The notes beneath the pieces were generated by a model. It saw only the letters and a program-made list of their open reading frames with translations. It made no database searches and had not been told where the DNA came from. Of a stretch of DNA of 64,000 bases, positions 27,707-62,167 are shown piece by piece. The number at the start of each line of letters is the position of its first letter. The first letter of the stretch is position 1. The stretch lies in assembly GCA_017848635.1 (NCBI GenBank), contig JAFIHK010000010.1, forward strand, positions 5,539-69,538, read 5' to 3'. This stretch comes from Bacteroidales bacterium (GTDB lineage: Bacteria; Bacteroidota; Bacteroidia; Bacteroidales; UBA932). The position numbers and the translations under genes are program-made.

Positions 27707-27714
27707 TATTTTTG
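27707..27714 (+). promoter_or_regulatory. candidate -7 promoter box (TAttTTTG) for the ECF sigma/SusCD locus
   Basis: TAnnTTTG match 19 nt upstream of the ATG at 27733. Confidence 0.3.
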
Positions 27715-27732
27715 TTAAGGTTCGCCATTGCT

Positions 27733-28287
27733 ATGGATAAGATCAAATCATTTGTTGAAGGTGTAAATTCTCGCTCTTTAAGTGCGTTTGATGTACTATT
27801 CAAGCTGCACTACAGAGAGTTGGTTTACTTTTCGAGTATCATCTGCGGCTCGGTACAGGACGCCGAGGATATTGTGCACGATGTTTTGATCCAGTTGTGG
27901 GAGAGCGCATATAAATTTGAAAATCATATAGCCTTACGTTCGTTCCTCTATACAAGCACAAAAAACAGAACTATAAATTTTGTCAAAAGGCACAATAAGC
28001 AGCTCAATGATATATCATTTCTTGATCTCCGGGATAATAACGAATCCATAATCGTAGCAATTACCGATGCCGAGGTGCTGTCGCTCATAAATCTGGCTAT
28101 TACAAGACTCCCGTCGGAGTGCGCAAAAGTGATGAAGCTTATTCTTCAGGGGTATTCATCGGCAGAAATAGCTGTGATGCTCGATCTGGCGCAGAGTACT
28201 GTGAGGGCACAGAAGAGAAGGGGGATCTCTCTGTTACGTAAATATCTGCCCAAGGAGGCATTTCTCTTTTTTATCACATTTTTTTAA
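27733..28287 (+). CDS. ECF sigma-70 factor (FecI-like, PUL-associated)
   Basis: Region 2 (DAEDIVHDVLIQLWE) and region 4 (SSAEIAVMLDLAQSTVRAQKRRG). Followed by a FecR-like gene and a SusC gene that carries a signalling domain. Confidence 0.85.
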   Translation: MDKIKSFVEGVNSRSLSAFDVLFKLHYRELVYFSSIICGSVQDAEDIVHDVLIQLWESAYKFENHIALRSFLYTSTKNRTINFVKRHNKQLNDISFLDLRDNNESIIVAITDAEVLSLINLAITRLPSECAKVMKLILQGYSSAEIAVMLDLAQSTVRAQKRRGISLLRKYLPKEAFLFFITFF

Positions 28288-28343
28288 AATTATATAGTCA
28301 TTTCTCCGGGCTCGATTGCTCTATTCAAAAGAGATCGGATTTT

Positions 28344-29480
28344 ATGACTGGTTTTGAAAAAATATCTGAATCGGCACTTCGTTGCTTCAAGCGGTTAATG
28401 CTTGGCGAGGAGGGGGCTGAAGATTATGAGATCTCAGATAGTGAGAGAAGAATAATCGAAAAGTATTCCGATGAGAGTAGTTTAAACAGAGAGTTAGATA
28501 TATTCAACTCTATAGACTATTCGAAGGCCTATTCAAAATTTTTAAATGCAGTTAGAAAGTCCAAGCGGGAGCGGAGGTCAAAATTGTTCTTAAGAGCAGC
28601 AGCAGGTATTGCTGCCGCTGCCGTAATCGCTGTCGCCTTAGTCATCGGGGGAGTTTTCAGATATAGCGGAGGGGTGACTATTATAAATAAATATGCTGTC
28701 GGTGACAGCAAGAGGGTATTGCTTATAACTCCGGATGGTGAGACATATTCAACTTCCGGAGATATAAAGGTCGAAGGCCAAAAGGTGATTGCCGCTAAAA
28801 GAGATCTGCTCTCCAAAAATGAAACAGAGCCTAGGGTGTCAAAAATAAATGAGTTGATTACTCCCGAAGGTGTCAGGCAAAAGATTACACTTCCCGACGG
28901 ATCGGTGGTTTGGCTCAATGCAGGGAGTTCGCTCAAGTTCCCTTCGGAATTTGAAGATTCTGCCAGGGTGGTTGCACTATCGGGAGAGGCCTTTTTTGAT
29001 GTCACAAAATCTGCAAAACGATTCATTGTAAAGATTGCAAATGCCGATGTAAGGGTTTACGGAACAACCTTTAACATCTCCTCATATAGTAACGCTTCTG
29101 TTTCCAATGTATCTCTCTATACAGGGTCTGTAGGTCTAAGAAGCGAAAGGGGATCGCTGATGCTCTCCCCCGGCTTTTATGCAGAATTGAACAATATCAA
29201 TCTCACTATTTCCGAACCGAAAGAGAACTTTTCAGATTCGCCTGACTGGATGCGAGGCAGAATGGAGTTCTTCTCTCAGCCGCTAAACAAGGTCTTTGAA
29301 GTCATTGGAAGGTGGTATAATATTGATTATGAGCTAATGAATGGCGCCGAAGATCTTGAGGTTACAATAACTATCTCCGATAAAACCAGCCTGGAAGAGT
29401 TGATAGAACTGTTTAAGATGACGCAGAATATTTCGGTATTGCGGAACGACAAAAAATTAATAATTGCAAAGAACAGATAA
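28344..29480 (+). CDS. FecR family anti-sigma factor
   Basis: Central TM helix (AAAGIAAAAVIAVALVIGGVF). FecR-type periplasmic domain (LPDGSVVWLNAGSSLKFP, GEAFFDVTKSAKRFIVK, VRVYGTTFNI). Confidence 0.85.
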   Translation: MTGFEKISESALRCFKRLMLGEEGAEDYEISDSERRIIEKYSDESSLNRELDIFNSIDYSKAYSKFLNAVRKSKRERRSKLFLRAAAGIAAAAVIAVALVIGGVFRYSGGVTIINKYAVGDSKRVLLITPDGETYSTSGDIKVEGQKVIAAKRDLLSKNETEPRVSKINELITPEGVRQKITLPDGSVVWLNAGSSLKFPSEFEDSARVVALSGEAFFDVTKSAKRFIVKIANADVRVYGTTFNISSYSNASVSNVSLYTGSVGLRSERGSLMLSPGFYAELNNINLTISEPKENFSDSPDWMRGRMEFFSQPLNKVFEVIGRWYNIDYELMNGAEDLEVTITISDKTSLEELIELFKMTQNISVLRNDKKLIIAKNR

Positions 29481-29561
29481 AAAAAGATGTAACTGATGTG
29501 CAGATCAGTTACATCCGGAAAACAGATCTGAATAACCTATAATCAAATCTTTAACAAAACT

Positions 29562-32500
29562 ATGAAAAAAAAGCCATTAATTATTAACTGCACCGTAAAA
29601 CTGGCATCATTTCTTCTGATGTTTCTATTGCTCTCTCCCGGGAAAGCCTATGGGAAAGATGTTACAACAGAATCGTCGCAGCAAAAGGTAACCCTCAACA
29701 TAAAAGAGGAGACCCTTACAAATGTGATCCAGTCTATTATCAAACAATCGGGTTGCGAAATTGTTTTTTTCACAGCCCAAACATCTGCGGTCAAGTGCCG
29801 CAACATTTCACTAACCTCCGAAACTGTCGACAAAGCACTTGAGATTGTTCTCAGGGGAACAGGGCTTTCGTTCCGGAATCAAAACGGAAAGTATGTAATT
29901 ATCCAGGCACCTGCCGATACCGGCCAAAAGGATAAACCCGTAAAAGAGATCACCGTATCGGGAAGAGTTACGGACTCTGGAGGAGAGCCCCTTCCTGCGG
30001 TAAATATAGCAGTGAAGGGAACAAAGAGAGGCACAAATACCGATATCGACGGTAAGTACAAATTAAGTGTGCCGGCAACAGGAATCACCCTTCAGTACTC
30101 GTTTGTAGGGATGGAAACCAAGGAGGTTAAAATAGCCGCCACTTCAAATACAACACTGAATATAATACTCAGAGAATCTGAGAATACTCTTAAAGAGCTC
30201 ACATTCGTATCTACCGGTTATCAGAAAATGAACAAACGGGATATGGTTGGGGCTCTTTCTACTATTAAGGCCGATGATGTACTTCGTCCGAATTATGTCT
30301 CTATCGACCAGATGCTGCAGGGGGTAGTTCCGGGAATGATTGTAACAAATTCCAGCGCACGTGTTGGAACCGCACCAACTATTCAGATCCGCGGTACCTC
30401 TACACTTCTCGGAGACTCATCACCTCTTTGGGTAGTAGATGGAATTATTCAGGAGGATCCTATAAAAATCACAGCAGCTACTGTACTCTCCGATGATATG
30501 AAAAATATCATAGGGAATCAGGTTTCCTGGCTCAATCCTCAGGATATCGAAACAATTACCGTTCTTAAAGATGCCTCGTCGACTGCAATATACGGCTCAA
30601 AGGCATCTAACGGAGTCATTGTTATTACGACAAAACAGGCAAAAGGGAGTAGCGACAGACTCACAGTAAACTATACCGGAAGTGTAACGGTAAATGCAAG
30701 ACCAAATTATGGTCAGTTCAATATGATGAACTCCCAAGAGAGAATTCAGTTTTCCGATGAGGTATTTGCCTCTGGAGTCCCATACTCTTCGGTCCCTTAT
30801 TATGACTATTATAGCTATGAGGGAACAAAAAGGCTTCTAATCGAGGGGTATATTAATCAAAGCGAGTTCAATGCAAAGAGAACCTTTTTTGAAACTGCAA
30901 ATACAGATTGGCTTAAACTGCTTACAAGAAATGCGATAAGCCAGAATCACAATATAAGTATGTCCGGAGGTTCAAATAAGATGAGCTTCACAGCATCACT
31001 TGCGTACTCAAACCAACAGGGGCAGGAGATAGGTAACGACTCAGAAAGATACTCCGGCAGATTGGCTACAACTTATAAAATAAGCGAGAGAGCCAGATTG
31101 AATATATCTATGTCGGGAAGTTTTGTGGAAAACACAGGGTTCGGGTATGGTGTAAATCCGTTGAGTTATGCCATAAGCACCAGCAGAGCTATTCCGGCGT
31201 ATGATGAGAACGGGGACCTTGCATATTACCAAAAGTCTAGAACATATAAATATAATACTATCCAGCCTTCTTTAGGGTATAACATTATTAATGAGAGGAA
31301 TAATTCATCTACCAATAGTGTAAATATGAGATATTCGGCAAATGCCGATTTGACCTGTAACATCCTTCCGTGGTTAACTTACAATTTTACCGGCGGATAT
31401 AACTATTCCAGCACCAACCTCTCCACATATATGTCGGAGAAGACATACTATATCGCAAATAACTACAGAGGGTATGACTTCGGAACGGCTCTCCCTGACT
31501 CAGATTTCTTCAAGGCTGCAATCCTTCCTTTCGGAGGGGAGTACTTTACCAATGATTCTAGACAAAATACATATAATATCCAGAATAAATTTTCTATGTT
31601 CTGGAACTTTAAAAATAACAGCAGGCTTAATGTTCTTATGGGGCACGAACTAAGATCTGCCCAGAATATTTCATTAGCCAATACGGTTTGGGGCTACTCT
31701 AAAGAGAGAGGTGAGATAATTATAAAACCGACACTGCCTACCGAACTTGTACCAACTGCAGGTTCTATATATACATATACCGGATACGGGATACTAGATA
31801 ATATATACTCGAACAGATGGAGGAAAACTAATCAGACAAATAATTTTATGTCTCTGTTTGCAACTCTGGCCTACACATTTGACGAGAAATATGTTCTGAA
31901 TGCAAGCATCAGAAATGATTTTTCCAATAGATTCGGTCAGGATGTAAACAGAAGAGTCGACCCAACATACTCTTTTGGAATCTCCTGGAGAGTTGCCGAT
32001 GAAAAGTTTATAAAAAAACATCTTCCACAGATTACTCAGTTGAATATTCGCGCTACATACGGTATTCAGGGTAATGCCCTGACTAACGAGAGTCCGGAAC
32101 TATTGCTCTACAAACAATCTAAAAAGAGTATATTCAATCAATACCACTCGACTATCAGCAAGATCCCAAATCCTAATCTTTCGTGGGAGAGAACTACAAA
32201 CTGGAATCTTGGCGCCGATATTATGCTTTTCAATAAGTTAAGCCTGGTGGTGGATTACTACTCAAGAAGATCCAATGCGGTAATCAGCCAGAATATTCCT
32301 TATGAGTACGGTATCACTTCAACTACCATGAATGGTGGAATTATCTACAACAAAGGTATTGAAGCCACATTCTCGTTCTCTCCAGTAAATACCAGAGATA
32401 AAGGTTTCAGCATAAGCCTTAATACATCTAAGAACTGGAACACGACAGGTCCGGCAATCACCACTACAACCCTTCAACAGTATCTGACAGGAAGGTCCGG

Positions 32501-33188
32501 AGTGATTATCAAGGAGGGATACCCTTTAAATGCATTTTGGTCATACTCCTTTGCAGGACTTGATCCAACAAACGGAAATCCAAAATTCAACCTTCTGGAT
32601 ACCGATCCTGCTTTAGCAAAAGCCGATCCTACATCTTTTCTGGTCTATTCTGGAGAGACATCTCCATCATTTACAGGTGGTATTAATCTGAATTTCAGGT
32701 ATAAATCATTCTCGCTTGGAACAAATTTCTCTATGCTGCTCGGAGGAAAGACAAGATTGGCTAATCCATATGCCGACTTCTCATCGGGCTTAAAGCTCCC
32801 AACAAGCGAGAGTAATGTAAACCGTCTGTTACTTAACAGATGGAAAAAATCGGGTGATGAACTACACACGAATATTCCTTCGATAAATCCTTCAACTACT
32901 GTGCTTACAAGCCTTCCAAACGGCTCTTCCGGCTATCTGGTAGATTTTTGGTCGAATTCGGATGCTCAGGTTGTGGACGCCTCATTCCTTAGATGCAGGA
33001 GCATAGATTTAAGCTGGAGGTTGAAAAAGAGCTCTCTTGATTATCTAGGACTTAAGAGCTTATCAGTTACAACTTCACTGAATAATATTTTTGTGATTGC
33101 ATCAAAAAGGTTTAACGGATTTGACCCCGAGCTAAAAAACAGCGTTTTGCCAAAATCTTTTTCGGTAGCAATATCAATCGGACTATAA
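29562..33188 (+). CDS. SusC/RagA family TonB-linked outer membrane transporter with an N-terminal STN signalling extension
   Basis: STN-like segment (LNIKEETLTNVIQSIIKQSGCEIVF). Carboxypeptidase-regulatory-like domain (VSGRVTDSGGEPLPAVNIAVKGT). Plug motifs (VSTGYQKM, IQIRGTSTL, LKDASSTAIYGSKASNGVIVITTK). 1208 aa in total. Confidence 0.92.
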   Translation: MKKKPLIINCTVKLASFLLMFLLLSPGKAYGKDVTTESSQQKVTLNIKEETLTNVIQSIIKQSGCEIVFFTAQTSAVKCRNISLTSETVDKALEIVLRGTGLSFRNQNGKYVIIQAPADTGQKDKPVKEITVSGRVTDSGGEPLPAVNIAVKGTKRGTNTDIDGKYKLSVPATGITLQYSFVGMETKEVKIAATSNTTLNIILRESENTLKELTFVSTGYQKMNKRDMVGALSTIKADDVLRPNYVSIDQMLQGVVPGMIVTNSSARVGTAPTIQIRGTSTLLGDSSPLWVVDGIIQEDPIKITAATVLSDDMKNIIGNQVSWLNPQDIETITVLKDASSTAIYGSKASNGVIVITTKQAKGSSDRLTVNYTGSVTVNARPNYGQFNMMNSQERIQFSDEVFASGVPYSSVPYYDYYSYEGTKRLLIEGYINQSEFNAKRTFFETANTDWLKLLTRNAISQNHNISMSGGSNKMSFTASLAYSNQQGQEIGNDSERYSGRLATTYKISERARLNISMSGSFVENTGFGYGVNPLSYAISTSRAIPAYDENGDLAYYQKSRTYKYNTIQPSLGYNIINERNNSSTNSVNMRYSANADLTCNILPWLTYNFTGGYNYSSTNLSTYMSEKTYYIANNYRGYDFGTALPDSDFFKAAILPFGGEYFTNDSRQNTYNIQNKFSMFWNFKNNSRLNVLMGHELRSAQNISLANTVWGYSKERGEIIIKPTLPTELVPTAGSIYTYTGYGILDNIYSNRWRKTNQTNNFMSLFATLAYTFDEKYVLNASIRNDFSNRFGQDVNRRVDPTYSFGISWRVADEKFIKKHLPQITQLNIRATYGIQGNALTNESPELLLYKQSKKSIFNQYHSTISKIPNPNLSWERTTNWNLGADIMLFNKLSLVVDYYSRRSNAVISQNIPYEYGITSTTMNGGIIYNKGIEATFSFSPVNTRDKGFSISLNTSKNWNTTGPAITTTTLQQYLTGRSGVIIKEGYPLNAFWSYSFAGLDPTNGNPKFNLLDTDPALAKADPTSFLVYSGETSPSFTGGINLNFRYKSFSLGTNFSMLLGGKTRLANPYADFSSGLKLPTSESNVNRLLLNRWKKSGDELHTNIPSINPSTTVLTSLPNGSSGYLVDFWSNSDAQVVDASFLRCRSIDLSWRLKKSSLDYLGLKSLSVTTSLNNIFVIASKRFNGFDPELKNSVLPKSFSVAISIGL

Positions 33189-33204
33189 TTTAAATAGCAT
33201 TAAA

Positions 33205-34713
33205 ATGAAAAAAATACTTTATATATCGATTATTTTGATTGTAGCCTCTTGCTCAAAATTTTTGGAACCGCAATCTCAAACCGAGTATGTGCCTAGGGAT
33301 ATCAATGCCCTTAGTGAATTGCTAATCGGGGAAGCCTATCTGGACCCTACCAATACAGCTTTTTCTGCATTCGGGTATAATGAAATACTCACTGATGATT
33401 GGGCTTGCACGATTGAGAATTGCGTAAATACCAATAATGAATCTAGATATACAAAATACAAGGCTATTTTCGCATGGCATCCTGATATGTTTAAATTGTC
33501 AAATGATCTAGGAGTGTATTATAATATCTGGAAAACCTATTATGAGTATATATTGGGTTGTAATGCCGTACTGGATTATCTTGATAAAGTCGAGGGAAGC
33601 ATAGATGAAAAGAATTATGTTAAGGGTCAGGCACTTGCTCTTCGATCATTCTATTATTTCAATCTGGTAAATCTATTCGGGGAGCCCTATAATTACAATA
33701 AAAAAGCACTGGGAGTTCCATTGAAACTCAACAGTAATCTGGATGTAAACTACCCTTCACGAGCTACTGTAGAGGAGGTATATACACAAATGGTAAAAGA
33801 TCTTAATGAGGCGGAGGCAGCTTTTAGTTTACTGCCGAATAATAAACAGTTCATCAAGGACGGGCGTGTTACTATGCCAATGATCCAATTGATGCAGGCT
33901 AGAGTTGCCCTGTTTATGGAGGATTACGACAAGGTCATTACATATGGAAATAAGGTGATCAACGAATGGGGTCTTAAACTATTGGACCTCAATTCATTTG
34001 TTTCAACTCCGGCTCAGCCATACTATTCATTTACCAACTATAGCAATCCTGAGGCAATATGGCTTTTTGGATGTAGCCAAGATATGTACAAGTTTACGAC
34101 AGAGTATATCTATAAATTGCCAAACTCAACTTCTCAGACAAGGAGAATGTTCAATGCGTCACCATCGCTTTTGAACTCTTTCGAGACCTCCGACCTGAGA
34201 AAGAACAACTACATTCTAAAGGAGAGTACTACGGTTTCCAACTATGTTCCGGCAGGAAAACTTCCTGTAGGTACTACATATCTTGCCCTATCTACAGAGT
34301 TCGGACGGGCATTCAGATTATCTGAGGCGTATGTGATGCTTGCAGAGGCTTACTATATGAAAAACAGACCACAGGATGCAGTTACGATTCTGGAGTCTTT
34401 AAGAATCAAGAGGTTTAATTCAAATTCCGGGAATGAGTATAAAGTTCCTTCAGGAAGCGAAACGGGAACAGCTCTATATAACTTTATAAAATCGGAGCGC
34501 CGTAGAGAGATGTGTTTTGAAGGACTTAGATGGTACGACCTGAGAAGATGGGGAATGGAGAGCTTTTCACGTGAGTGGAAAGAGGAGGGGGTTGTTGTTG
34601 CAACCTTTACTATGGAGAAGAACGACCCGGCCTATACGCTGCCAATACCGTTCGATGTGATTGATCTAAATCCGAATCTGGTTCAAAACAAATTATCAAC
34701 TCCAAAATATTGA
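33205..34713 (+). CDS. SusD/RagB family nutrient-binding outer membrane lipoprotein
   Basis: Lipobox LIVASC and C-terminal SusD signature ERRREMCFEGLRWYDLRRWG. Positioned directly after susC. Confidence 0.9.
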   Translation: MKKILYISIILIVASCSKFLEPQSQTEYVPRDINALSELLIGEAYLDPTNTAFSAFGYNEILTDDWACTIENCVNTNNESRYTKYKAIFAWHPDMFKLSNDLGVYYNIWKTYYEYILGCNAVLDYLDKVEGSIDEKNYVKGQALALRSFYYFNLVNLFGEPYNYNKKALGVPLKLNSNLDVNYPSRATVEEVYTQMVKDLNEAEAAFSLLPNNKQFIKDGRVTMPMIQLMQARVALFMEDYDKVITYGNKVINEWGLKLLDLNSFVSTPAQPYYSFTNYSNPEAIWLFGCSQDMYKFTTEYIYKLPNSTSQTRRMFNASPSLLNSFETSDLRKNNYILKESTTVSNYVPAGKLPVGTTYLALSTEFGRAFRLSEAYVMLAEAYYMKNRPQDAVTILESLRIKRFNSNSGNEYKVPSGSETGTALYNFIKSERRREMCFEGLRWYDLRRWGMESFSREWKEEGVVVATFTMEKNDPAYTLPIPFDVIDLNPNLVQNKLSTPKY

Positions 34714-35687
34714 TTATGAAAAATATAAATAAATATATTATAATTGCTGTTGCATCTCTGTTGACACTATCCTGCTATAAAGAGGATCCGATTATTCCGT
34801 CATCTTCTGAGGGCTCCGATCGATTTACCTTTCCGCAGGGAAGCAGTGACTTCGATTCAGAAGCGGCCAAGGTTTATGATAAATTTGGAGTAAAGATCAT
34901 CTATAAGGACTACAAGGATGTTGATTTTAACCTTTCGTGGACCTCTCCGGGGTTTGGGAAAGTAGGATACGCTATTCCTCAGGATCAGCAAAAAGAGGCT
35001 GTAATGTTTGCTGTTGACCATATTTTCGGAAACCTTACACCTCAAATTACTAAAAAGGTACTCCCTCCATACTTCTATTTGGCAGATAGCGTTTATCAAA
35101 AGACTGTTGTGAGCTACCTCGAATATATTTCTGCAACAACTTACAACTATGCGGGGCTCGATTTCTGGTGTTTCACCTGGAATGGAGTTAGACCTTGGAC
35201 CAAAAACAACAGTGATGGAACGATAACATATAGCAATCAAGTTTATAGACCAAGAAACTCATTCGAATATTTTTACCGTAGAGGAGTTATGTTAAAAGAG
35301 ATCTACAAGAAAGCGGTAACAATGGGTAACATCAAGGTTCCTGAGGGTTTCAGTTCCGATTTGGATTTTGTTACTGCAGTAAAATCTGCAACAGGAACTG
35401 AGAATGATCCGAACTACTATTTGAAAAGAGGTTTTCCGGGTATTATGAATTCTGCTTTAAACTTTAATCTTAGTAAGCTATCTTCAATAACCAGTACAGG
35501 GCCTACACAAATCTTCATAGACTATATTCACCTATGTATGAGATATTCAGCAGACTCTATTGAGGTGATTTGTCCTAAAGCAAAATACCCTATTATACAC
35601 CAAAAGTATCCTATCGTAATAAATTATATGAAGGATAAATATGGAGTGGATCTTGAAAAAATATCAAAAAAACCGCAGATTCCTTAA
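34710..35687 (+). CDS. surface lipoprotein of unknown function (PUL-encoded)
   Basis: Lipobox LLTLSCYKED. The start overlaps the susD stop (ATGA). I recognise no HExxH or other catalytic motif. Confidence 0.6.
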   Translation: MIMKNINKYIIIAVASLLTLSCYKEDPIIPSSSEGSDRFTFPQGSSDFDSEAAKVYDKFGVKIIYKDYKDVDFNLSWTSPGFGKVGYAIPQDQQKEAVMFAVDHIFGNLTPQITKKVLPPYFYLADSVYQKTVVSYLEYISATTYNYAGLDFWCFTWNGVRPWTKNNSDGTITYSNQVYRPRNSFEYFYRRGVMLKEIYKKAVTMGNIKVPEGFSSDLDFVTAVKSATGTENDPNYYLKRGFPGIMNSALNFNLSKLSSITSTGPTQIFIDYIHLCMRYSADSIEVICPKAKYPIIHQKYPIVINYMKDKYGVDLEKISKKPQIP

Positions 35688-35690
35688 TAA

Positions 35691-36689
35691 ATGAAAAAAA
35701 TATTGACACTATTGGTGCTCACCGCTATTGCGGGGGGCAGTGCGACAGCTCAATTCCGACTAAATTGTAAGATAAGAGTTATAGGCTCCGTAAACATCAC
35801 GCTTACAAATCTTAACAATGATACTCTATTTAATGGAGTTGTAAAAAACGGAGAGGAGTTTACTTCAGGGGCGCTTGATATAAAGGAGGATCTCTACAGA
35901 CTTAGCATAGGAATGATAAAGAGAGATGTGATTCTTAGTAACTCTCCTATCCAGATAAAGGGTTTCGTAGATGCAAAAAATGAGAGTACATCAAATATTC
36001 AAATTATGGGTTCCCCTCTGTCGGATAGTTTGCATAATGCTTTAGGGCTATTTAAGAACTGGGGAAGAGGTGCCTGGGATTGGGCTAGGATTGAAAATAG
36101 ATTCTCGCCGGAGGTTCTCTCCTCTGTAGTAGTGTTGAATGATCATCACTTCGCTCAGAAGTATGAAGTACTTAAAATGCTGAATGATAGCTACTCATAT
36201 GAGACTAAAAGAAATCTGCTCAGCGGTAGAATAAGAGAGCTATTTACGACTGCCGATAATTTTAAGATAGGAGCAAAGTCAACTGATTTTACACTTCCTG
36301 ATAGAGATGGTGTAAAACACTCCACTTCACAAATGAGAGGGAAGCTGATTCTCGTTGATTTCTGGGCCTCTTGGTGTGGTCCATGCAGGAAGGAGATGAA
36401 GAGCCTTCAGTCAATTTATGAAGAGATTAAGGGAGACGACCTCATATTCATTAGTATATCACTGGATGATAAGAGGGAGGATTGGATCAAAGCTATGGAT
36501 ACAGATAATATTCCCTGGCTGGCTCTATGGGATGACAGCGGTTTCAAAAACACCAAATTTCAGAAACTATATGGCTTTTCTCAGATACCATTTATAATGC
36601 TTATAGGAAAAGATGGTAAGATATTGGCCAGAGGATTAAGGGGAGAAGATGTAAAAACAGAAATTTTAAAAAACAGAGATATTAAATGA
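35691..36689 (+). CDS. TlpA/AhpC-TSA family thiol:disulfide oxidoreductase (exported)
   Basis: Signal peptide. The C-terminal thioredoxin fold has LILVDFWASWCGPCRKE and the conserved IPFIMLIGKDGKI motif. Confidence 0.85.
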   Translation: MKKILTLLVLTAIAGGSATAQFRLNCKIRVIGSVNITLTNLNNDTLFNGVVKNGEEFTSGALDIKEDLYRLSIGMIKRDVILSNSPIQIKGFVDAKNESTSNIQIMGSPLSDSLHNALGLFKNWGRGAWDWARIENRFSPEVLSSVVVLNDHHFAQKYEVLKMLNDSYSYETKRNLLSGRIRELFTTADNFKIGAKSTDFTLPDRDGVKHSTSQMRGKLILVDFWASWCGPCRKEMKSLQSIYEEIKGDDLIFISISLDDKREDWIKAMDTDNIPWLALWDDSGFKNTKFQKLYGFSQIPFIMLIGKDGKILARGLRGEDVKTEILKNRDIK

Positions 36690-38425
36690 AAAAGGTTTTA
36701 ACACTATTTATAACATCAATAGCAGTAATCAGCCTGAATGCGCAGGTAACTCCTGAGGATTATGCAAAATCAAATCTAAAAAAGGGGAGCTGGTACAAAA
36801 GTGCACCGGAATCTGGCGTCTATGGGATTGACCTTGATGGGGCAAAGAGATTGGTTAAAGATAGGAAGATAAAAAAGACACCAATTGTAGCCTTGATAGG
36901 AAGTGGAATTGATGCCGAACACGAAGCACTTAAGGGCTCTTTGTGGTTCAATCCGAAGGAGAAACCGGACGGGATCGATAATGATAATAACGGATATATC
37001 GATGATATCAACGGTTGGAACTTTATAGGGTCGAAAGATGGAGCCACAATGGATTATACAACTAAGGAGGGTATTAGAGAGTGGTTGAGGCTTAAGGATA
37101 AATATGCCGATCTATTATTTGACGGAGAGAAATTCTTTAAATATGTGGATGGTAAGCGTCAATACTTAACCACTCCTGTTGATATGAATGAATATAAATA
37201 TTTTTATAATCTTGTTCTCAATAATAATGCTCCTGTTGCAAAGACATATGCGGGATTTGTTGTGGCATCTATGTTTAAAGAGTATGTGGAGAGATGGAAT
37301 GTTGAGTTGAAGGAGCGCTTCCCGAACAAAGCTATGACCGAAATTTCACTGGAAGATTTCAAACAGTTTATGGGAGAGAAGAGTATAGAGAAGGACTCTC
37401 TCCAGAATCTTGCTTTTGCATTCAGTCATATGTACGGAAGTATGGTTAAGGGATATATGAAAGAGAGCGCTGTTGACTCGAGTTGGAAGATGATCTATAA
37501 TAATTTTGCAAATAAACAGATAGGATTTTCTCTTAAAAACTATGAGAATGAGTATAAGAGAAGCGTAAATGACAACAGAGCAAGTATTGTTGGGGATAAT
37601 CCAAATGATATTAATGATTATAGATATGGTAATAATGTTCTCATGACCTCTGCATCGATGTCCGGGACTATGAACTCCGGAATTATTGCCGGAAAGGATG
37701 TAAATAATACTGGATTTTCAGGGATCTTTCCGGAAGCAAAGATTATGACATTAGTGACTACTGCTGTGGATGGAGAGCCTTATGTAAAGGATTTGGCTCT
37801 GGCTGTAAGATATGCTGTGAAGAACGGTGCTGACATAATTCTTTTGCCATTCCAGTTATCGTTCATTCCTACAGACAAGATGGATTGGCTCTATGATGCA
37901 ATTGGTGAAGCGGAAAAGCGTGGGATACTGGTTATTGCCCCTGTATGGGAAGCAGGAGAGGATCTTGCGGTTAAGAAATACTATCCATCAAAAGATGGAT
38001 ATAAGGGCAAAGCATTTAAGAATCTAATGATTGTTGCCAACTCCGACTCTACCGGTATCCCTATTCAGCTCTCCAACTATGGAAAAGAGGGGCTCGATTT
38101 ATTTGCGCCGGCTCATCTTATCTACTCGACACTTCCGGGAGATATATACAAAACTGCTTCATCATCTTCATTCGGGGCTGCTGTAACTGTCGGTTCGGCT
38201 GCATTCTTAAAAGCATACTTCCCCGAACTTAACGGAGCTCAGATTCGGGAGATTCTTGTAAAGAACTGTACCGATAGAAAAGGTGTAGAGGTTGAAAAGA
38301 GTATTAGAATTAAAGATAATTTAGAGAAAGAGATTTTTATTTTCGAACAACTGTGTGAATCTGCGGGTATTCTTAATCTTAAAAAGAGCGTGGAGGCTGC
38401 ATTAAATTTTAAAGTGAAGAAATAG
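36686..38425 (+). CDS. subtilisin (S8) family homologue with substituted catalytic residues (probable pseudopeptidase)
   Basis: S8 scaffold motifs are retained (VALIGSGIDAEHEAL, DNDNNGYIDDINGWNF, SGTMNSGIIAG, SSSFGAAVTVGSAAFL). The positions aligned to Asp32 and His64 read Gly and Ser. Confidence 0.7.
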   Translation: MKKVLTLFITSIAVISLNAQVTPEDYAKSNLKKGSWYKSAPESGVYGIDLDGAKRLVKDRKIKKTPIVALIGSGIDAEHEALKGSLWFNPKEKPDGIDNDNNGYIDDINGWNFIGSKDGATMDYTTKEGIREWLRLKDKYADLLFDGEKFFKYVDGKRQYLTTPVDMNEYKYFYNLVLNNNAPVAKTYAGFVVASMFKEYVERWNVELKERFPNKAMTEISLEDFKQFMGEKSIEKDSLQNLAFAFSHMYGSMVKGYMKESAVDSSWKMIYNNFANKQIGFSLKNYENEYKRSVNDNRASIVGDNPNDINDYRYGNNVLMTSASMSGTMNSGIIAGKDVNNTGFSGIFPEAKIMTLVTTAVDGEPYVKDLALAVRYAVKNGADIILLPFQLSFIPTDKMDWLYDAIGEAEKRGILVIAPVWEAGEDLAVKKYYPSKDGYKGKAFKNLMIVANSDSTGIPIQLSNYGKEGLDLFAPAHLIYSTLPGDIYKTASSSSFGAAVTVGSAAFLKAYFPELNGAQIREILVKNCTDRKGVEVEKSIRIKDNLEKEIFIFEQLCESAGILNLKKSVEAALNFKVKK

Positions 38426-38429
38426 AGTT

Positions 38430-39608
38430 ATGGTTAGTAATAATATGTGGTCGAGGATAACAATTACACTTTGTGTTATCCTCCTATCCCTCTCTCCGAA
38501 CAAATCGTTAGCTCAGTCTACAGTTGCAGTAATTCCTTATGAATTAACAGCTGGAAAGATGATTATCAAGATGTATCTTAATGAAAAAGAGGAGCGTTTC
38601 ATTTTTGATACGGGGGCGAGTAAAACATCTTTGTCAACCAAATATTGTCAGGAAAACAACTATATTGTTGTAGACTCTACGCTGATAAGTGATGCTACAA
38701 GCAATACGTCATACTATAAGATGACAAGAATTGCCTCTTTGCTTACAACTGATAATAAAATCAGGTTTACATCTATCCCAACACTGATTATGCCTGAGCC
38801 TTCACCACTGATGTGTCTGAACGTTATTGGAATAATTGGTAGCGATATTCTTCAGAATCTGATATGTACAATTGATCCAAATAGTAAGACAATCACTTTG
38901 ACAACTGCCGAGAAACCGGTCGCCGAGTCATTAAGATATTCTCACAGGTTTGCGGATAACGGCTTTATGCCTGTATTCTCTCTTTTTCTTAACGGAGTTG
39001 AGACAAAAGTTCTTTTTGACACCGGATGTTCTTCATTTATGGCATTGAGAGATAAAGACTTTGAAAATATGAGAAAGTTAAATGTGATAAAGATTGTTAA
39101 AGAGGGAGAGGGTGTTACCAGTATAGGACTATCCGGCAAACTCGAGTCAATCAGCAACTATCTTGTTTATATCAAAGATATGAGAGTTGGTCCGGTAAAA
39201 TTTGCGAATGTAGTCACCGAGACCTCAAATACTCCACTAACTCTTATGGGCACAAGTTTTCTCAATTTTGCCAAAGTGATTATAGATTATCCGAGGAGAT
39301 TGCTTTACTACCTGCCTTACTCATCAGAGCCAATTACACCTGTATATAAGACTACCAATTTCGGACTTACAATAAAGGATAGAAAACTTGTTGTAACCCA
39401 TATCTGGAAAAACCTTGAAGGGGTATTGTCGGAAGGGGATCTAATCACTCATATTAACGGAGTGGAGACGGGTGTATACGATTTTTGTGACCTCTGTTCT
39501 GGGATTAAAGAGTTGAGGGTGCCGGGGAAAAAGATGTTCACAATCAGAAAAAAAGATGGCAAGACTGTAGAGATAGAATACATTGTGGAGAATTTTGAAT
39601 TTAAATAA
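38430..39608 (+). CDS. exported protein with two retropepsin-like aspartic protease domains and a C-terminal PDZ-like domain
   Basis: FIFDTGASKTSL with VIGIIGSDILQNL, then VLFDTGCSSFMAL with TLMGTSFLNF. The C-terminal GDLITHINGVE resembles PDZ. Confidence 0.72.
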   Translation: MVSNNMWSRITITLCVILLSLSPNKSLAQSTVAVIPYELTAGKMIIKMYLNEKEERFIFDTGASKTSLSTKYCQENNYIVVDSTLISDATSNTSYYKMTRIASLLTTDNKIRFTSIPTLIMPEPSPLMCLNVIGIIGSDILQNLICTIDPNSKTITLTTAEKPVAESLRYSHRFADNGFMPVFSLFLNGVETKVLFDTGCSSFMALRDKDFENMRKLNVIKIVKEGEGVTSIGLSGKLESISNYLVYIKDMRVGPVKFANVVTETSNTPLTLMGTSFLNFAKVIIDYPRRLLYYLPYSSEPITPVYKTTNFGLTIKDRKLVVTHIWKNLEGVLSEGDLITHINGVETGVYDFCDLCSGIKELRVPGKKMFTIRKKDGKTVEIEYIVENFEFK

Positions 39609-39613
39609 AAGAG

Positions 39614-40888
39614 ATGAAAAAAAACATTTTATTATTAATAGTTAGCTTTTTGTCAACGACTCTATTTTCACAGGCTACTGTGACCAAGAGCGAGTCAATT
39701 ACATATAGAGAGCTTGATGGCCGGATTGTGCTTAAAGTTACTCTGAACGGAATAGAGGGCGATTTTATTCTAGATTTAGCAGGTAAATGTGCTCTCCTGC
39801 CAGAGTTTGCCCAAAAGGCAGGAATTACGGACATTCAGCCAGTAACAAATCCTATAGAGAATTATCACTATAAAAAGGTCAAGACTGCCGGAAAATGTAC
39901 GATTAATACAATTGCAATAGGAAATAACATTTTTGCGAATGCCCTGACCGCGTTTATTATTTCGGATGATTCGGCAGAATATCTCCGGAAAATGGGAATC
40001 GCAGGTACAATTGGCGGATCATTGCTGCAGAATGTTGTATTTACCATTGATAAAAAGGGGAAGAGAGTATTTGCATCTACACCCTATAAACCCGTATTTA
40101 TAAGTACAACAGAGAGAGCAAACTGTAAAATACTACCTGGAGTTACTCCCGAGTTTGAGATATATATAAACGGCAAACCGGTAAATGTAATTCTGGATAC
40201 ATGGGAAAAAGGTCTGGTTTCATTAAGTTCCGAATCACTATTGCCCGCACAGGGTATTAAGAAGGGTTCCGGAAAAATCTCCGGGAGTGGTTACAGTGCC
40301 GATATTTCAGCAGTTAAAGCGGTTAGTGCCGATGATATATCTTTTATAAATGTAAAGGTAAAAGATGGCATTGTAACCATTAACCCATCTCTTTCAAAGC
40401 CGGTTATAGGACTATCGATGCTAGATTACGGAGTTGTTTCGATCGACTACCAGAGATTCAAGATATATTTCCAATCCTATGACAAGACAATCATAAAAGA
40501 GGAGGCAAAGGCAGAATTGGCCAAAATAGAGCCAGGTAAAGTCAATCCAATCACAAAAGATGAGTTTATCGAATATATTTTCAATTACAAGAGTGGAGAG
40601 GAGTTCTCCCTTAAAGGAGATAAACCTGTGATTATAGATTTTTGGGCGACCTGGTGCGGTCCATGCAAAAAACTTCTACCTGTAATGGAGAAGCTGGCAT
40701 TAAAATATAAAGACCGGATTATTTTCTACAAGGTCAATGCCGATTTGGAGAAGGAGTTGTGTTCAAAGTACAATATTAACGCTTTACCAACATTGATTAT
40801 GGCGGCTCCGGGAAAGGCGCCGATCTTTGAAGTCGGTGATGTATCGGACAAGCTTATAGAGATTATAGAGAATAAGCTTCTTAAATAA
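39614..40888 (+). CDS. exported paralogue with two degenerate retropepsin-like domains fused to a C-terminal thioredoxin domain
   Basis: FILDLAGKCALL with IAGTIGGSLLQNVVFTID is collinear with the upstream gene, but the DTG motif is degenerate. The second lobe reads VILDTWEKG. The C-terminus has VIIDFWATWCGPCKKLLP and ALPTLIM thioredoxin motifs. Confidence 0.72.
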   Translation: MKKNILLLIVSFLSTTLFSQATVTKSESITYRELDGRIVLKVTLNGIEGDFILDLAGKCALLPEFAQKAGITDIQPVTNPIENYHYKKVKTAGKCTINTIAIGNNIFANALTAFIISDDSAEYLRKMGIAGTIGGSLLQNVVFTIDKKGKRVFASTPYKPVFISTTERANCKILPGVTPEFEIYINGKPVNVILDTWEKGLVSLSSESLLPAQGIKKGSGKISGSGYSADISAVKAVSADDISFINVKVKDGIVTINPSLSKPVIGLSMLDYGVVSIDYQRFKIYFQSYDKTIIKEEAKAELAKIEPGKVNPITKDEFIEYIFNYKSGEEFSLKGDKPVIIDFWATWCGPCKKLLPVMEKLALKYKDRIIFYKVNADLEKELCSKYNINALPTLIMAAPGKAPIFEVGDVSDKLIEIIENKLLK

Positions 40889-40919
40889 CAAACATTATAT
40901 ATAGTTACTTTGTGTGGAA

Positions 40920-40951
40920 GGGGGAGTGATCTTAGGCACTCCCCCTTTTTT
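40920..40951 (+). terminator. Rho-independent terminator ending the SusCD/redox operon
   Basis: Perfect 9-bp GC-rich stem gggggagtg / cactccccc followed by TTTTTT. Confidence 0.8.
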
Positions 40952-62081: not shown

Positions 62082-62167
62082 ATTTGATTTTAAAGATTTA
62101 ATGAACAAATATACAGATTATATTATTGAGCCGGCATATATTATTTGCCCTTTTTATTACTTTTTTT

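Follow-up and report, generated by a model that had tools for sequence, protein, structure and literature searches.

A SusC/SusD transporter that is encoded together with reductases and protease-like proteins, in place of carbohydrate-active enzymes (CAZymes), raises the question of what it imports. Such a locus lies at positions 27733–40949, including its terminator, of a 64-kb stretch of DNA from a Bacteroidales bacterium (contig JAFIHK010000010.1), which is termed the window below. In the list of open reading frames (ORFs) of the window, nine on the + strand span 27733–40888. They encode an extracytoplasmic function (ECF) sigma factor, a FecR-type anti-sigma factor, SusC, SusD and five cargo proteins, i.e. 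a lipoprotein, a TlpA-type oxidoreductase, a pseudo-subtilase, a predicted two-lobed aspartic protease, and a degenerate retropepsin-like module fused to thioredoxin (Table 1). We put a probability of about 0.5 on the reading that this conserved, ECF/anti-sigma-controlled locus takes up a proteinaceous, disulfide-containing substrate, and not a glycan. We put this function forward as a well-motivated hypothesis.

The transporter and its regulators

By its domains the system is a SusC system of the trans-envelope signaling type, with an ECF sigma factor, an adjacent FecR and an STN domain on the transporter. The sigma protein matches Sigma70_r2 (PF04542, 44.6 bits), Sigma70_r4_2 (PF08281, 30.6 bits) and TIGR02937 (76.6 bits against a cutoff of 42.9), all above cutoffs. 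It is 81% identical to its orthologue in Bacteroidales bacterium CF (locus L003), the nearest complete genome found. The anti-sigma factor, encoded 56 nucleotides (nt) further on, matches FecR (PF04773, 60 bits) and FecR_C (PF16344, 39.5 bits). An ECF sigma factor is encoded upstream in most of the related loci, and FecR is located 5′ of SusC in most of them. SusC scores 617.5 bits against TIGR04056, with STN, CarboxypepD_reg, Plug and barrel domains; the STN domain (PF07660, 41.1 bits against a cutoff of 28.4) occupies residues 76–115, before CarboxypepD_reg and Plug. The susD gene follows susC after 16 nt, and its product has a lipobox ending in ASC and matches SusD-like_3 (82 bits) and SusD_RagB (78.5 bits). 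Pfam and NCBIfam therefore bear out the ECF sigma/FecR/STN-SusC/SusD architecture that an earlier, sequence-only reading of this DNA had proposed. Of the features that define a polysaccharide utilization locus (PUL), the adjacent susC/susD pair is present, and co-localized CAZymes are absent by both Pfam and NCBIfam.

The closest solved structure to SusC is ButC (8YPU/8YPT; 301 bits, E = 1.7e-88). RagA is second with 211 bits, and glycan-importing SusC homologues score ~190 bits or less. For SusD the closest solved structure is ButD (8YPT_A; 108 bits, E = 5e-30). Many SusD structures described as 'carbohydrate-binding' are matched as well, and RagB is among the matches, weakly (E about 5e-4). 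In sequence the transporter is closest to ButCD and RagA, importers of a folded protein and of peptides, a ranking that is suggestive.

The cargo proteins

All five cargo proteins start with a lipobox or a signal-peptide-like N-terminus, the four signal-peptide-like ones being judged by inspection. Searches with Pfam and NCBIfam found no glycoside hydrolase (GH), polysaccharide lyase, carbohydrate esterase or carbohydrate-binding module (CBM) in the five proteins or in their unassigned sub-regions, in agreement with the earlier reading, which recognized no glycoside hydrolase, lyase or esterase motif. Four of the proteins are protease-like. Three of these (the lipoprotein, the subtilase and the fusion) are catalytically dead by motif, and the aspartic protease is intact.

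The lipoprotein had been left unassigned in the sequence-only reading. It is indeed placed in no family above threshold; against Peptidase_Mx1/TIGR04549 it scores 16.7 bits where the curated cutoff is 75, and 14.4 where it is 25.6. By fold and profile it is nevertheless a divergent relative of Peptidase_Mx1. Its AlphaFold (AF2) model has a predicted local distance difference test score (pLDDT) of 88, and the lone significant match of this model to a solved fold in Foldseek is 4l7a, the 'putative zinc-binding metallopeptidase' Peptidase_Mx1 of Bacteroides caccae (E = 5e-5, probability 1.0, template modeling (TM) score 0.35–0.41, a partial overlap). A weak C-terminal match is common to three sequence libraries, in the form of TIGR04549, PF15890 and 4l7a. 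An exhaustive profile search with the lipoprotein gave 500 cluster representatives (50% identity) at E ≤ 1e-3, with 96 at E ≤ 1e-30. Some distant members of this family match PF15890 at up to 6e-11, and the broader family profile matches both 4l7a and 9urd, a 'substrate import-associated zinc metallohydrolase lipoprotein'. No HExxH zinc site is present in the window lipoprotein or in an alignment of 32 members, and the motif occurs in just one of 108 full-length representatives of the family, probably by chance. The lipobox (LSC) is followed by Y-K-E-D, a match to the K-(D/E)2 export signal that directs Bacteroidetes lipoproteins to the cell surface (PMC5080379). A CAZyme domain had been sought in this protein in particular; none was found, and the fold is that of a peptidase instead. 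The lipoprotein is probably a peptidase-like, HExxH-less and non-catalytic relative of a family known beside SusCD pairs, and probably exposed at the surface. We propose that it acts as a non-catalytic subunit for substrate capture.

The TlpA-type protein has a signal-peptide-like N-terminus, matches to Thioredoxin_8 (73 bits), AhpC-TSA and Redoxin, and a C-terminal WCGPC motif. This sequence is kept in most of the orthologues, with variants of the CxxC in three. The earlier assignment to a TlpA-type CxxC oxidoreductase therefore holds at the level of the domain, i.e. a TlpA/ResA-type thioredoxin fold with WCGPC. The scores are below the equivalog cutoffs (68.6 bits against 170 for ResA, and 59.5 against 230 for TlpA), and there are no ccm, res or sco genes near the gene. 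The first ~190 amino acids (aa) match no family.

The fusion protein of 424 aa is paralogous to the 392 aa aspartic protease over both lobes (26% identity, E = 5e-15). In place of the DTG motifs it has D-L-A-G and D-T-W, and this degeneracy is kept across the orthologues. Without the two D-T/S-G motifs it does not qualify as an active aspartic protease of clan AA. The thioredoxin CxxC is retained, as WCGPC in most orthologues and as WCIPC and WCAPC in two. The protein is therefore the degenerate double retropepsin–thioredoxin fusion described in the sequence-only reading, with conserved loss of the protease motifs, an intact WCGPC and a thioredoxin match of 85.5 bits. From these motifs we propose that it could function as a peptide-binding disulfide reductase.

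Alignment of the pseudo-subtilase with deseasin (3vv3) and subtilisins shows that the catalytic aspartate is replaced by glycine, the histidine by serine and the oxyanion asparagine by glutamate, and that the serine position is retained. The aspartate is glycine in 13 of 13 orthologues, and the histidine and serine positions vary. By its catalytic residues the protein is not an active subtilase (MEROPS S8), although the match to the fold is kept (PF00082, 71 bits), so that its earlier description as a catalytically degenerate subtilase was correct. An insert of ~200 aa (residues about 119–323) between the aspartate and histidine regions has no match among Pfam or PDB profiles, and no CBM-like signal was seen there with either.

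By contrast with these degenerate proteins, the 392 aa protein retains its motifs. Across 24 homologues neither D60-T61-G62 nor D197-x-G199 varies, and the second lobe has DTG in all but two of the locus orthologues, which have DSG. In Foldseek the AF2 model (pLDDT 88.5) is most similar to 9iy9 (E = 1.5e-13), which is described as a 'putative endopeptidase' of Bacteroides fragilis, and further matches include renin, chymosin, plasmepsins and a single-chain HIV protease. Since the motifs are invariant and the model matches pepsin-like folds, the protein is probably an active, single-chain, two-lobed pepsin-like aspartic protease, and is the only one of the five for which protease activity is predicted. 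Its C-terminal 90 residues form a small β-rich domain in the model. The protein had been read as a double retropepsin with a PDZ domain. Both retropepsin stretches stand, with intact DTG motifs, but the PDZ assignment is weak and tentative, given that the matches are sub-threshold (PDZ_6 E=0.09, PDZ E=0.18) and that Foldseek matches are dominated by the protease lobes. Two cysteines, C129 in the first lobe and C353 in the C-terminal PDZ-like domain, are invariant in the 24 homologues, and the more divergent paralogues are without the first. From their positions, an inter-domain C129–C353 disulfide could allow the protease to be redox-gated by the co-encoded reductases.

The ratio of nonsynonymous to synonymous substitution rates (dN/dS) was calculated against Bacteroidales bacterium CF. 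Locus L001, on a contig of GCA_029974885.1, is nearly identical to the window (64 differences in 21.7 kb) and so too similar for an informative ratio of polymorphisms (pN/pS). dN/dS is 0.04–0.14 for every gene, pseudoenzymes included, with values of 0.105 for the pseudo-subtilase and 0.054 for the thioredoxin fusion. These low values indicate that the pseudoenzymes are maintained and are not decaying. The possibility that they are pseudogenes in decay was considered and rejected; the ORFs of the dead enzymes are intact in all lineages, with dN/dS of 0.05–0.11. The synonymous rate (dS) itself is very uneven along the locus. It is as low as 0.45 in the lipoprotein and 0.63 in TlpA but about 2.4 in fecR and in the thioredoxin fusion, which suggests recombination or mosaic ancestry inside the locus.

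Conservation of the cassette

Eighteen related loci were obtained from a lipoprotein-anchored scan of 185,579 species representatives, 58 more from a scan of metagenomes, and 7 more via homologues of the subtilase. The order FecR-SusC-SusD-lipoprotein-TlpA-pseudo-subtilase-protease-fusion recurs among them. It is kept at 24–60% protein identity, on which ground chance adjacency of the genes was rejected. The carriers are Bacteroidales bacterium CF, metagenome-assembled genomes labeled Muribaculaceae and Paludibacter, Pedobacter cryotolerans, Butyricimonas species, Bacteroides intestinigallinarum, B. congonensis and Rikenellaceae; families with the cassette include Bacteroidaceae, Odoribacteraceae and Rikenellaceae. 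The subtilase homologue that B. congonensis encodes is present in 262 blocks of the assembly collection, which makes the cassette a common one in data from the human gut.

Where at least 1.3 kb of sequence extends beyond the lipoprotein gene, a thioredoxin-fold gene is found downstream of it in 61 of 64 loci, and is the next gene in 58. Conservation of the gene set as a unit across the Bacteroidota, a check that the sequence-only reading had called for, can be judged in the 33 loci whose sequence continues for at least 6.6 kb past the lipoprotein gene. All four periplasmic genes are present in 24 of these. Only TlpA is missing in three (Pedobacter and two Rikenellaceae), a short form with thioredoxin-fold genes only is found in four (Odoribacter, Butyricimonas and two metagenome loci), and the cassette is partial in the remaining two. 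The architecture of the cassette and its conservation are solid.

Variant loci

The loci that depart from this arrangement do so in several ways. In L011 and L012 a secreted, double TldD/PmbA-like metallopeptidase of 1099 aa is encoded between the lipoprotein and TlpA, its ORF being split in two in L011. Both retropepsin genes are missing from L012, where another FecR-SusC system comes next. A DUF4953 Met-zincin, accompanied by DUF5117/5118 in Pedobacter, flanks the cassettes of Butyricimonas and Pedobacter, and DUF4369-TlpA-like genes flank those of Butyricimonas and Odoribacter, a further pairing of protease and TlpA. Short-form loci have TlpA and a Thioredoxin_7/DsbH-like protein. The gut Bacteroides lineage has two tandem, overlapping paralogues of the aspartic protease, where one is found elsewhere. 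In this lineage a GH20 β-hexosaminidase of 809 aa is encoded directly 3′ of the cassette on the same strand, at a distance of ~160 bp. GH20 is limited to this lineage. The related loci L024 and L025 do without it and have trxB-lolA-ftsK downstream, encoded on the other strand. The accessory genes of the variant loci are peptidases, with GH20 the single exception.

In the Rikenellaceae loci L018 and L019 no ECF sigma factor, FecR or TlpA was detected. Their SusC is shorter (1130 and 1163 aa, compared with 1208), as is the thioredoxin fusion (326–327 aa), from which most of the second retropepsin-like lobe is gone. TlpA and the ECF/FecR pair are thus frequent but non-universal parts of the cassette. 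The variation among the loci leaves SusC-SusD-lipoprotein together with thioredoxin-fold and protease-like proteins as the conserved core.

Some further arrangements were seen in single loci. In L018 a lipoprotein of 423 aa that belongs to no family precedes SusC. In L025 the pseudo-subtilase is N-terminally extended (621 aa) and comes after seven small family-less ORFs, where SusCD-lipoprotein-TlpA would be expected; rearrangement, insertion of a mobile element or misassembly may account for this. L022 has a second locus, STN-SusC/SusD/DUF4843/PKD_2/DUF4369-TlpA, that is convergent with the cassette.

Comparison with known systems

ButCD of Bacteroides fragilis imports BfUbb, a folded, disulfide-containing homologue of ubiquitin (PMC11467351). 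It is encoded with a metalloprotease and without CAZymes, and loci of this kind were considered in that study to be probable transporters of polypeptides (PMC11467351). The present locus resembles it in having ButCD as the best solved match for both SusC and SusD, in the lack of CAZymes and in an adjacent predicted peptidase. The two differ in that only the zinc metalloprotease accompanies susCD in the ButCD locus, for which ECF/FecR, TlpA, a thioredoxin fusion, a pseudo-subtilase and an aspartic protease are not described. The proteins are only remotely similar, with scores of a few hundred bits along about 980 aa. RagAB of Porphyromonas gingivalis (PDB 6SLI and related entries) is likewise a SusCD-type pair, contains the second-best solved match for SusC, and has peptides and not glycans as its cargo.

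The lipoprotein shares with Peptidase_Mx1/TIGR04549 proteins (4l7a, 9urd) a position directly after SusC/SusD, the fold and a C-terminal sequence block. The HExxH that defines that family is however lost here, and the window protein scores far below the cutoffs. For the ragAB locus we know of no dedicated periplasmic reductase or protease cargo, and of no ECF/anti-sigma/STN signaling. SusC-SusD-DUF4843-PKD-like-TlpA loci, which are common in the Bacteroidota and known only from annotation, with the second locus of L022 as an example, are like the present locus in having STN-SusC, SusD, lipoproteins, a terminal TlpA and no CAZymes. They are unlike it in that the lipoproteins are DUF4843 and PKD_2, and in having no pseudo-subtilase, aspartic protease or thioredoxin fusion; we found no characterization of that arrangement in the literature. 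A thioredoxin fold with a CxxC motif is joined to a separate peptide-binding domain in DsbC/DsbG and in eukaryotic protein disulfide isomerase (PDI). The fusion protein of the window would be analogous to these in concept. Its binding module is non-homologous to theirs, being a dead, two-lobed aspartic protease cleft.

Full-text searches of the literature found no paper on the present cassette. SusCD loci for proteins and peptides (RagAB, ButCD), Mx1-type lipoproteins beside SusCD, and SusCD loci that end in TlpA are already known. The present locus differs from these in its conserved combination, in which an HExxH-less Mx1-like lipoprotein and TlpA are joined by a pseudo-subtilase, a two-lobed aspartic protease and a pseudo-retropepsin–thioredoxin fusion.

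What does the locus import?

A proteinaceous substrate is supported because the nearest solved transporters are ButCD and RagA, and because the variant loci add or adjoin peptidases. The gene products could act together as follows. SusC, SusD and the Mx1-like lipoprotein that lacks the zinc site would capture a polypeptide at the cell surface. Binding of the ligand would be signaled via STN to FecR, freeing the ECF sigma factor and switching on the operon from susC to the thioredoxin fusion. TonB-dependent import would carry the polypeptide into the periplasm, where its disulfides would be reduced by TlpA and by the thioredoxin fused to the dead retropepsin cleft. The dead subtilase and the dead retropepsin module may bind and hold the peptide chain, and the intact pepsin-like aspartic protease would then cleave the unfolded chain. 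A more specific form of this idea is a dedicated system for 'reductive proteolysis', the first SusCD pathway for disulfide-rich proteins or peptides. Three unrelated protease folds (an Mx1-type metallopeptidase, a subtilase and a retropepsin) would have turned into non-catalytic binding modules, the thioredoxin-fused one acting as a PDI-like periplasmic unfoldase, and all would feed the single pepsin-like aspartic protease. We regard this as possible, and advance it tentatively.

Several points weigh against uptake of a disulfide-containing protein. The evidence for the substrate is indirect. The order of ButC (301 bits), RagA (211) and the glycan-importing SusC proteins (~190) is a ranking of scores and not a phylogeny. 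Many of the metagenome loci come from the one gut Bacteroides lineage and are not independent, so that independent lineages number closer to a dozen. Genes of the TlpA family commonly adjoin SusCD pairs in the Bacteroidota, as in the second locus of L022. TlpA is absent from the Pedobacter and two Rikenellaceae loci, and the short forms consist of the lipoprotein and thioredoxin-fold genes; TlpA and the protease-like genes are therefore separable. No electron donor of the CcdA/DsbD type was found in the window. Lastly, the GH20 gene downstream of the cassette in the gut Bacteroides lineage means that glycans may belong to the substrate there, which could then be a glycopeptide or glycoprotein.

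This last observation is the main point in favor of a PUL for a glycan or glycoprotein, whose CAZymes would lie right next to the cassette or at some other place, and with reductases and protease that strip the protein part or perform housekeeping in the envelope. GH20 follows the cassette in the Bacteroides loci L015, L020/L021 and L026, SusD matches many of the 'carbohydrate-binding' structures, and ECF/anti-sigma-linked SusCD loci in Bacteroides are classically tied to the use of host glycans. Yet there is no CAZyme in the cassette of the window or in most lineages, and the related gut loci L024 and L025 do without GH20. The surface lipoprotein is peptidase-like and is neither CBM-like nor GH-like, the genes that are gained or lost with the cassette are peptidases, and the nearest solved transporters carry proteins or peptides. 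A PUL of this kind is judged unlikely. Next to it in likelihood, and also doubtful, comes a role in defense of the envelope. Here STN-SusC would sense and import a disulfide-stabilized antimicrobial peptide or toxin (defensin-, bacteriocin- or BfUbb-like), and the induced reductases and protease would inactivate it, giving protection and not nutrition. ECF sigma factors typically control envelope stress responses, ButCD, the nearest solved SusCD, lets an antibacterial protein that contains a disulfide into the cell, and the cargo comprises reductases and a protease with no downstream catabolic or inner-membrane transporter genes. Importing a toxin in order to destroy it would however be costly and has no known precedent. 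Moreover, carriers of the cassette come from soil, glacier and digester (Pedobacter cryotolerans, Bacteroidales bacterium CF) and not from the gut alone, which argues for a widespread substrate. The biochemistry would be identical to that of the nutritional model, and sequence analysis cannot separate the two.

It is improbable that the locus serves for the import or redox handling of a non-protein thiol or disulfide compound or cofactor, with the protease-like proteins as scaffolds unrelated to peptide binding. Such a role would be in keeping with the catalytic death of three of the four protease-like modules and with the short-form loci, which retain only the lipoprotein and thioredoxin-fold proteins, and there are SusCD-like and TonB systems whose cargo is not a glycan, vitamin B12 being one example. 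It fits poorly with one protease in which both DTG motifs are invariant, with dead modules that keep the folds of peptide clefts under purifying selection, and with accessory genes of the variant loci that are peptidases. Least probable is the suggestion that the PDZ-bearing aspartic protease is a dedicated site-1 protease that cleaves FecR during signaling, and not a degrader of substrate. The gene does share a locus with FecR, and in other systems of cell-surface signaling the processing of anti-sigma factors is carried out by periplasmic proteases with a PDZ domain. Against this the Rikenellaceae loci L018 and L019, where SusC is shorter, retain the protease gene with no ECF sigma factor or FecR detected upstream, which makes this role unlikely. 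The PDZ assignment is in any case weak, and to our knowledge the vast majority of ECF/FecR/SusC loci have no such protease. Uptake of a disulfide-containing protein or peptide remains our preferred reading of the locus.

Organization of the locus and its surroundings

The positions of all the features are collected in Table 1. The distances between the nine successive genes are 56, 81, 16, 2, 3, −4, 4 and 5 nt, the last five of these (2, 3, −4, 4 and 5 nt) linking SusD and the five cargo genes. The putative operon ends in a strong terminator-like hairpin with a run of T after the stem, close to position 40920 where a terminator had been placed in the sequence-only reading. It is the sole G+C-rich + strand terminator of the region, and the scan for terminators found no other + strand terminator-like site between 27000 and 40900. 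Of two ATGA overlaps claimed earlier, the one at 36686 is real, and accounts for the distance of −4 nt between TlpA and the pseudo-subtilase. The site at 34710 reads TTGA and is probably unused, as the lipoprotein starts at ATG 34716, 2 nt past the SusD stop; this start is backed by the orthologues and by the gene call in L001. The start of the sigma gene has also to be moved, from 27707/27712 to ATG 27733 (giving 184 aa), in agreement with the gene call in L001.

The inverted repeat between fecR and susC has no T-run on the + strand. It may be a boundary or insulator between a constitutive sigma/anti-sigma transcript and the ECF-driven transporter and cargo operon.

Housekeeping genes flank the locus (threonine synthase, phosphoglycerate mutase, KdsB, a sigma-54 activator, LptE and SecG). 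Two large, paralogous-looking proteins of 793 and 815 aa each have a sub-threshold N-terminal match to MG2, of the α-2-macroglobulin type, and the gene for the larger lies directly 5′ of the sigma gene on the same strand with a gap of 108 nt. Convergent with the cassette is a gene for a lipoprotein of 548 aa with no Pfam family, which was not found beside the cassette in any other locus, including the flank of L003. Peptidases of the S46 and M16 families are encoded elsewhere in the window, which fits a peptide-consuming lifestyle of the host.

Table 1. Positions of the genes and other features of the locus, of neighboring genes in the window, and of variant features in related loci (L numbers)
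Feature	Position	Strand	Matches and remarks
ECF-type sigma-70 factor, 184 aa	27733..28287	+	Sigma70_r2, Sigma70_r4_2, TIGR02937
FecR-type anti-sigma factor, 378 aa	28344..29480	+	FecR, FecR_C
13-bp perfect inverted repeat between fecR and susC	29485..29516		terminator scan, − strand
SusC/RagA-family TonB-dependent transporter with N-terminal STN, 1208 aa	29562..33188	+	TIGR04056, STN
SusD/RagB-family surface lipoprotein, 502 aa	33205..34713	+	SusD_RagB, SusD-like_3
Surface-type lipoprotein, 323 aa, divergent Peptidase_Mx1/TIGR04549 relative	34716..35687	+	lipobox, fold match 4l7a
Periplasmic TlpA/ResA-type thiol-disulfide oxidoreductase (predicted), 332 aa	35691..36689	+	Thioredoxin_8, WCGPC
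Pseudo-subtilase, 579 aa	36686..38425	+	Peptidase_S8 PF00082, 71 bits
Two-lobed aspartic protease (predicted), 392 aa, small C-terminal PDZ-like domain	38430..39608	+	Asp_protease_2, gag-asp_proteas, RVP
Degenerate two-lobed retropepsin-like module fused to thioredoxin, 424 aa	39614..40888	+	Thioredoxin 85.5 bits, weak Asp_protease_2
Intrinsic-terminator-like hairpin at operon end	40916..40949	+	13-bp stem with 7 GC pairs, 8-nt loop, then TTTTTTATT
Peptidase S46 (dipeptidyl-peptidase 7/11 type)	740-2884	−	840 bits
MG2-like protein, 793 aa	19608-21989	−	sub-threshold N-terminal MG2
MG2-like protein, 815 aa	25178-27625	+	sub-threshold N-terminal MG2
Lipoprotein, 548 aa	41126-42772	−	
M16 peptidase	59262-62108	−	
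Double TldD/PmbA-like metallopeptidase	L012 10933-14232; L011 10930-14264		
Met-zincin/DUF4369-TlpA-like flanks	L013 72-2451, L014, L016, L017 (upstream of sigma gene); L008 15544-18093		
Tandem aspartic protease paralogues	L015 10742-13046; L026 2175-4479; many of L032-L066		
GH20 β-hexosaminidase	L015 14514-16943; L020/L021 14344-16773; L026 5948-8377		
Seven small ORFs and extended pseudo-subtilase	L025 1-2400		
Second STN-SusC/SusD locus	L022 14343-21743	−	

Significance

SusCD systems are mostly understood as importers of glycans. Just a handful of importers of proteins or peptides are known (RagAB, ButCD, BT2261-64), and none of these is known to have a defined pathway for periplasmic processing. 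The present cassette is a conserved and compact candidate for such a pathway, and Bacteroides congonensis, Butyricimonas species and Pedobacter cryotolerans are cultivable carriers of it. It could explain the frequent occurrence of TlpA-family genes beside SusCD pairs in the Bacteroidota. It also provides a clear case in which several protease folds are kept as non-catalytic modules under purifying selection, and points to a predicted bacterial single-chain pepsin-like aspartic protease in a defined physiological context. Should a disulfide-rich protein of host or microbial origin prove to be the substrate, such as mucin domains, defensins, cystine-rich proteins of plants or fungi, or bacterial toxins, the system would matter for gut ecology and for antagonism between bacteria.

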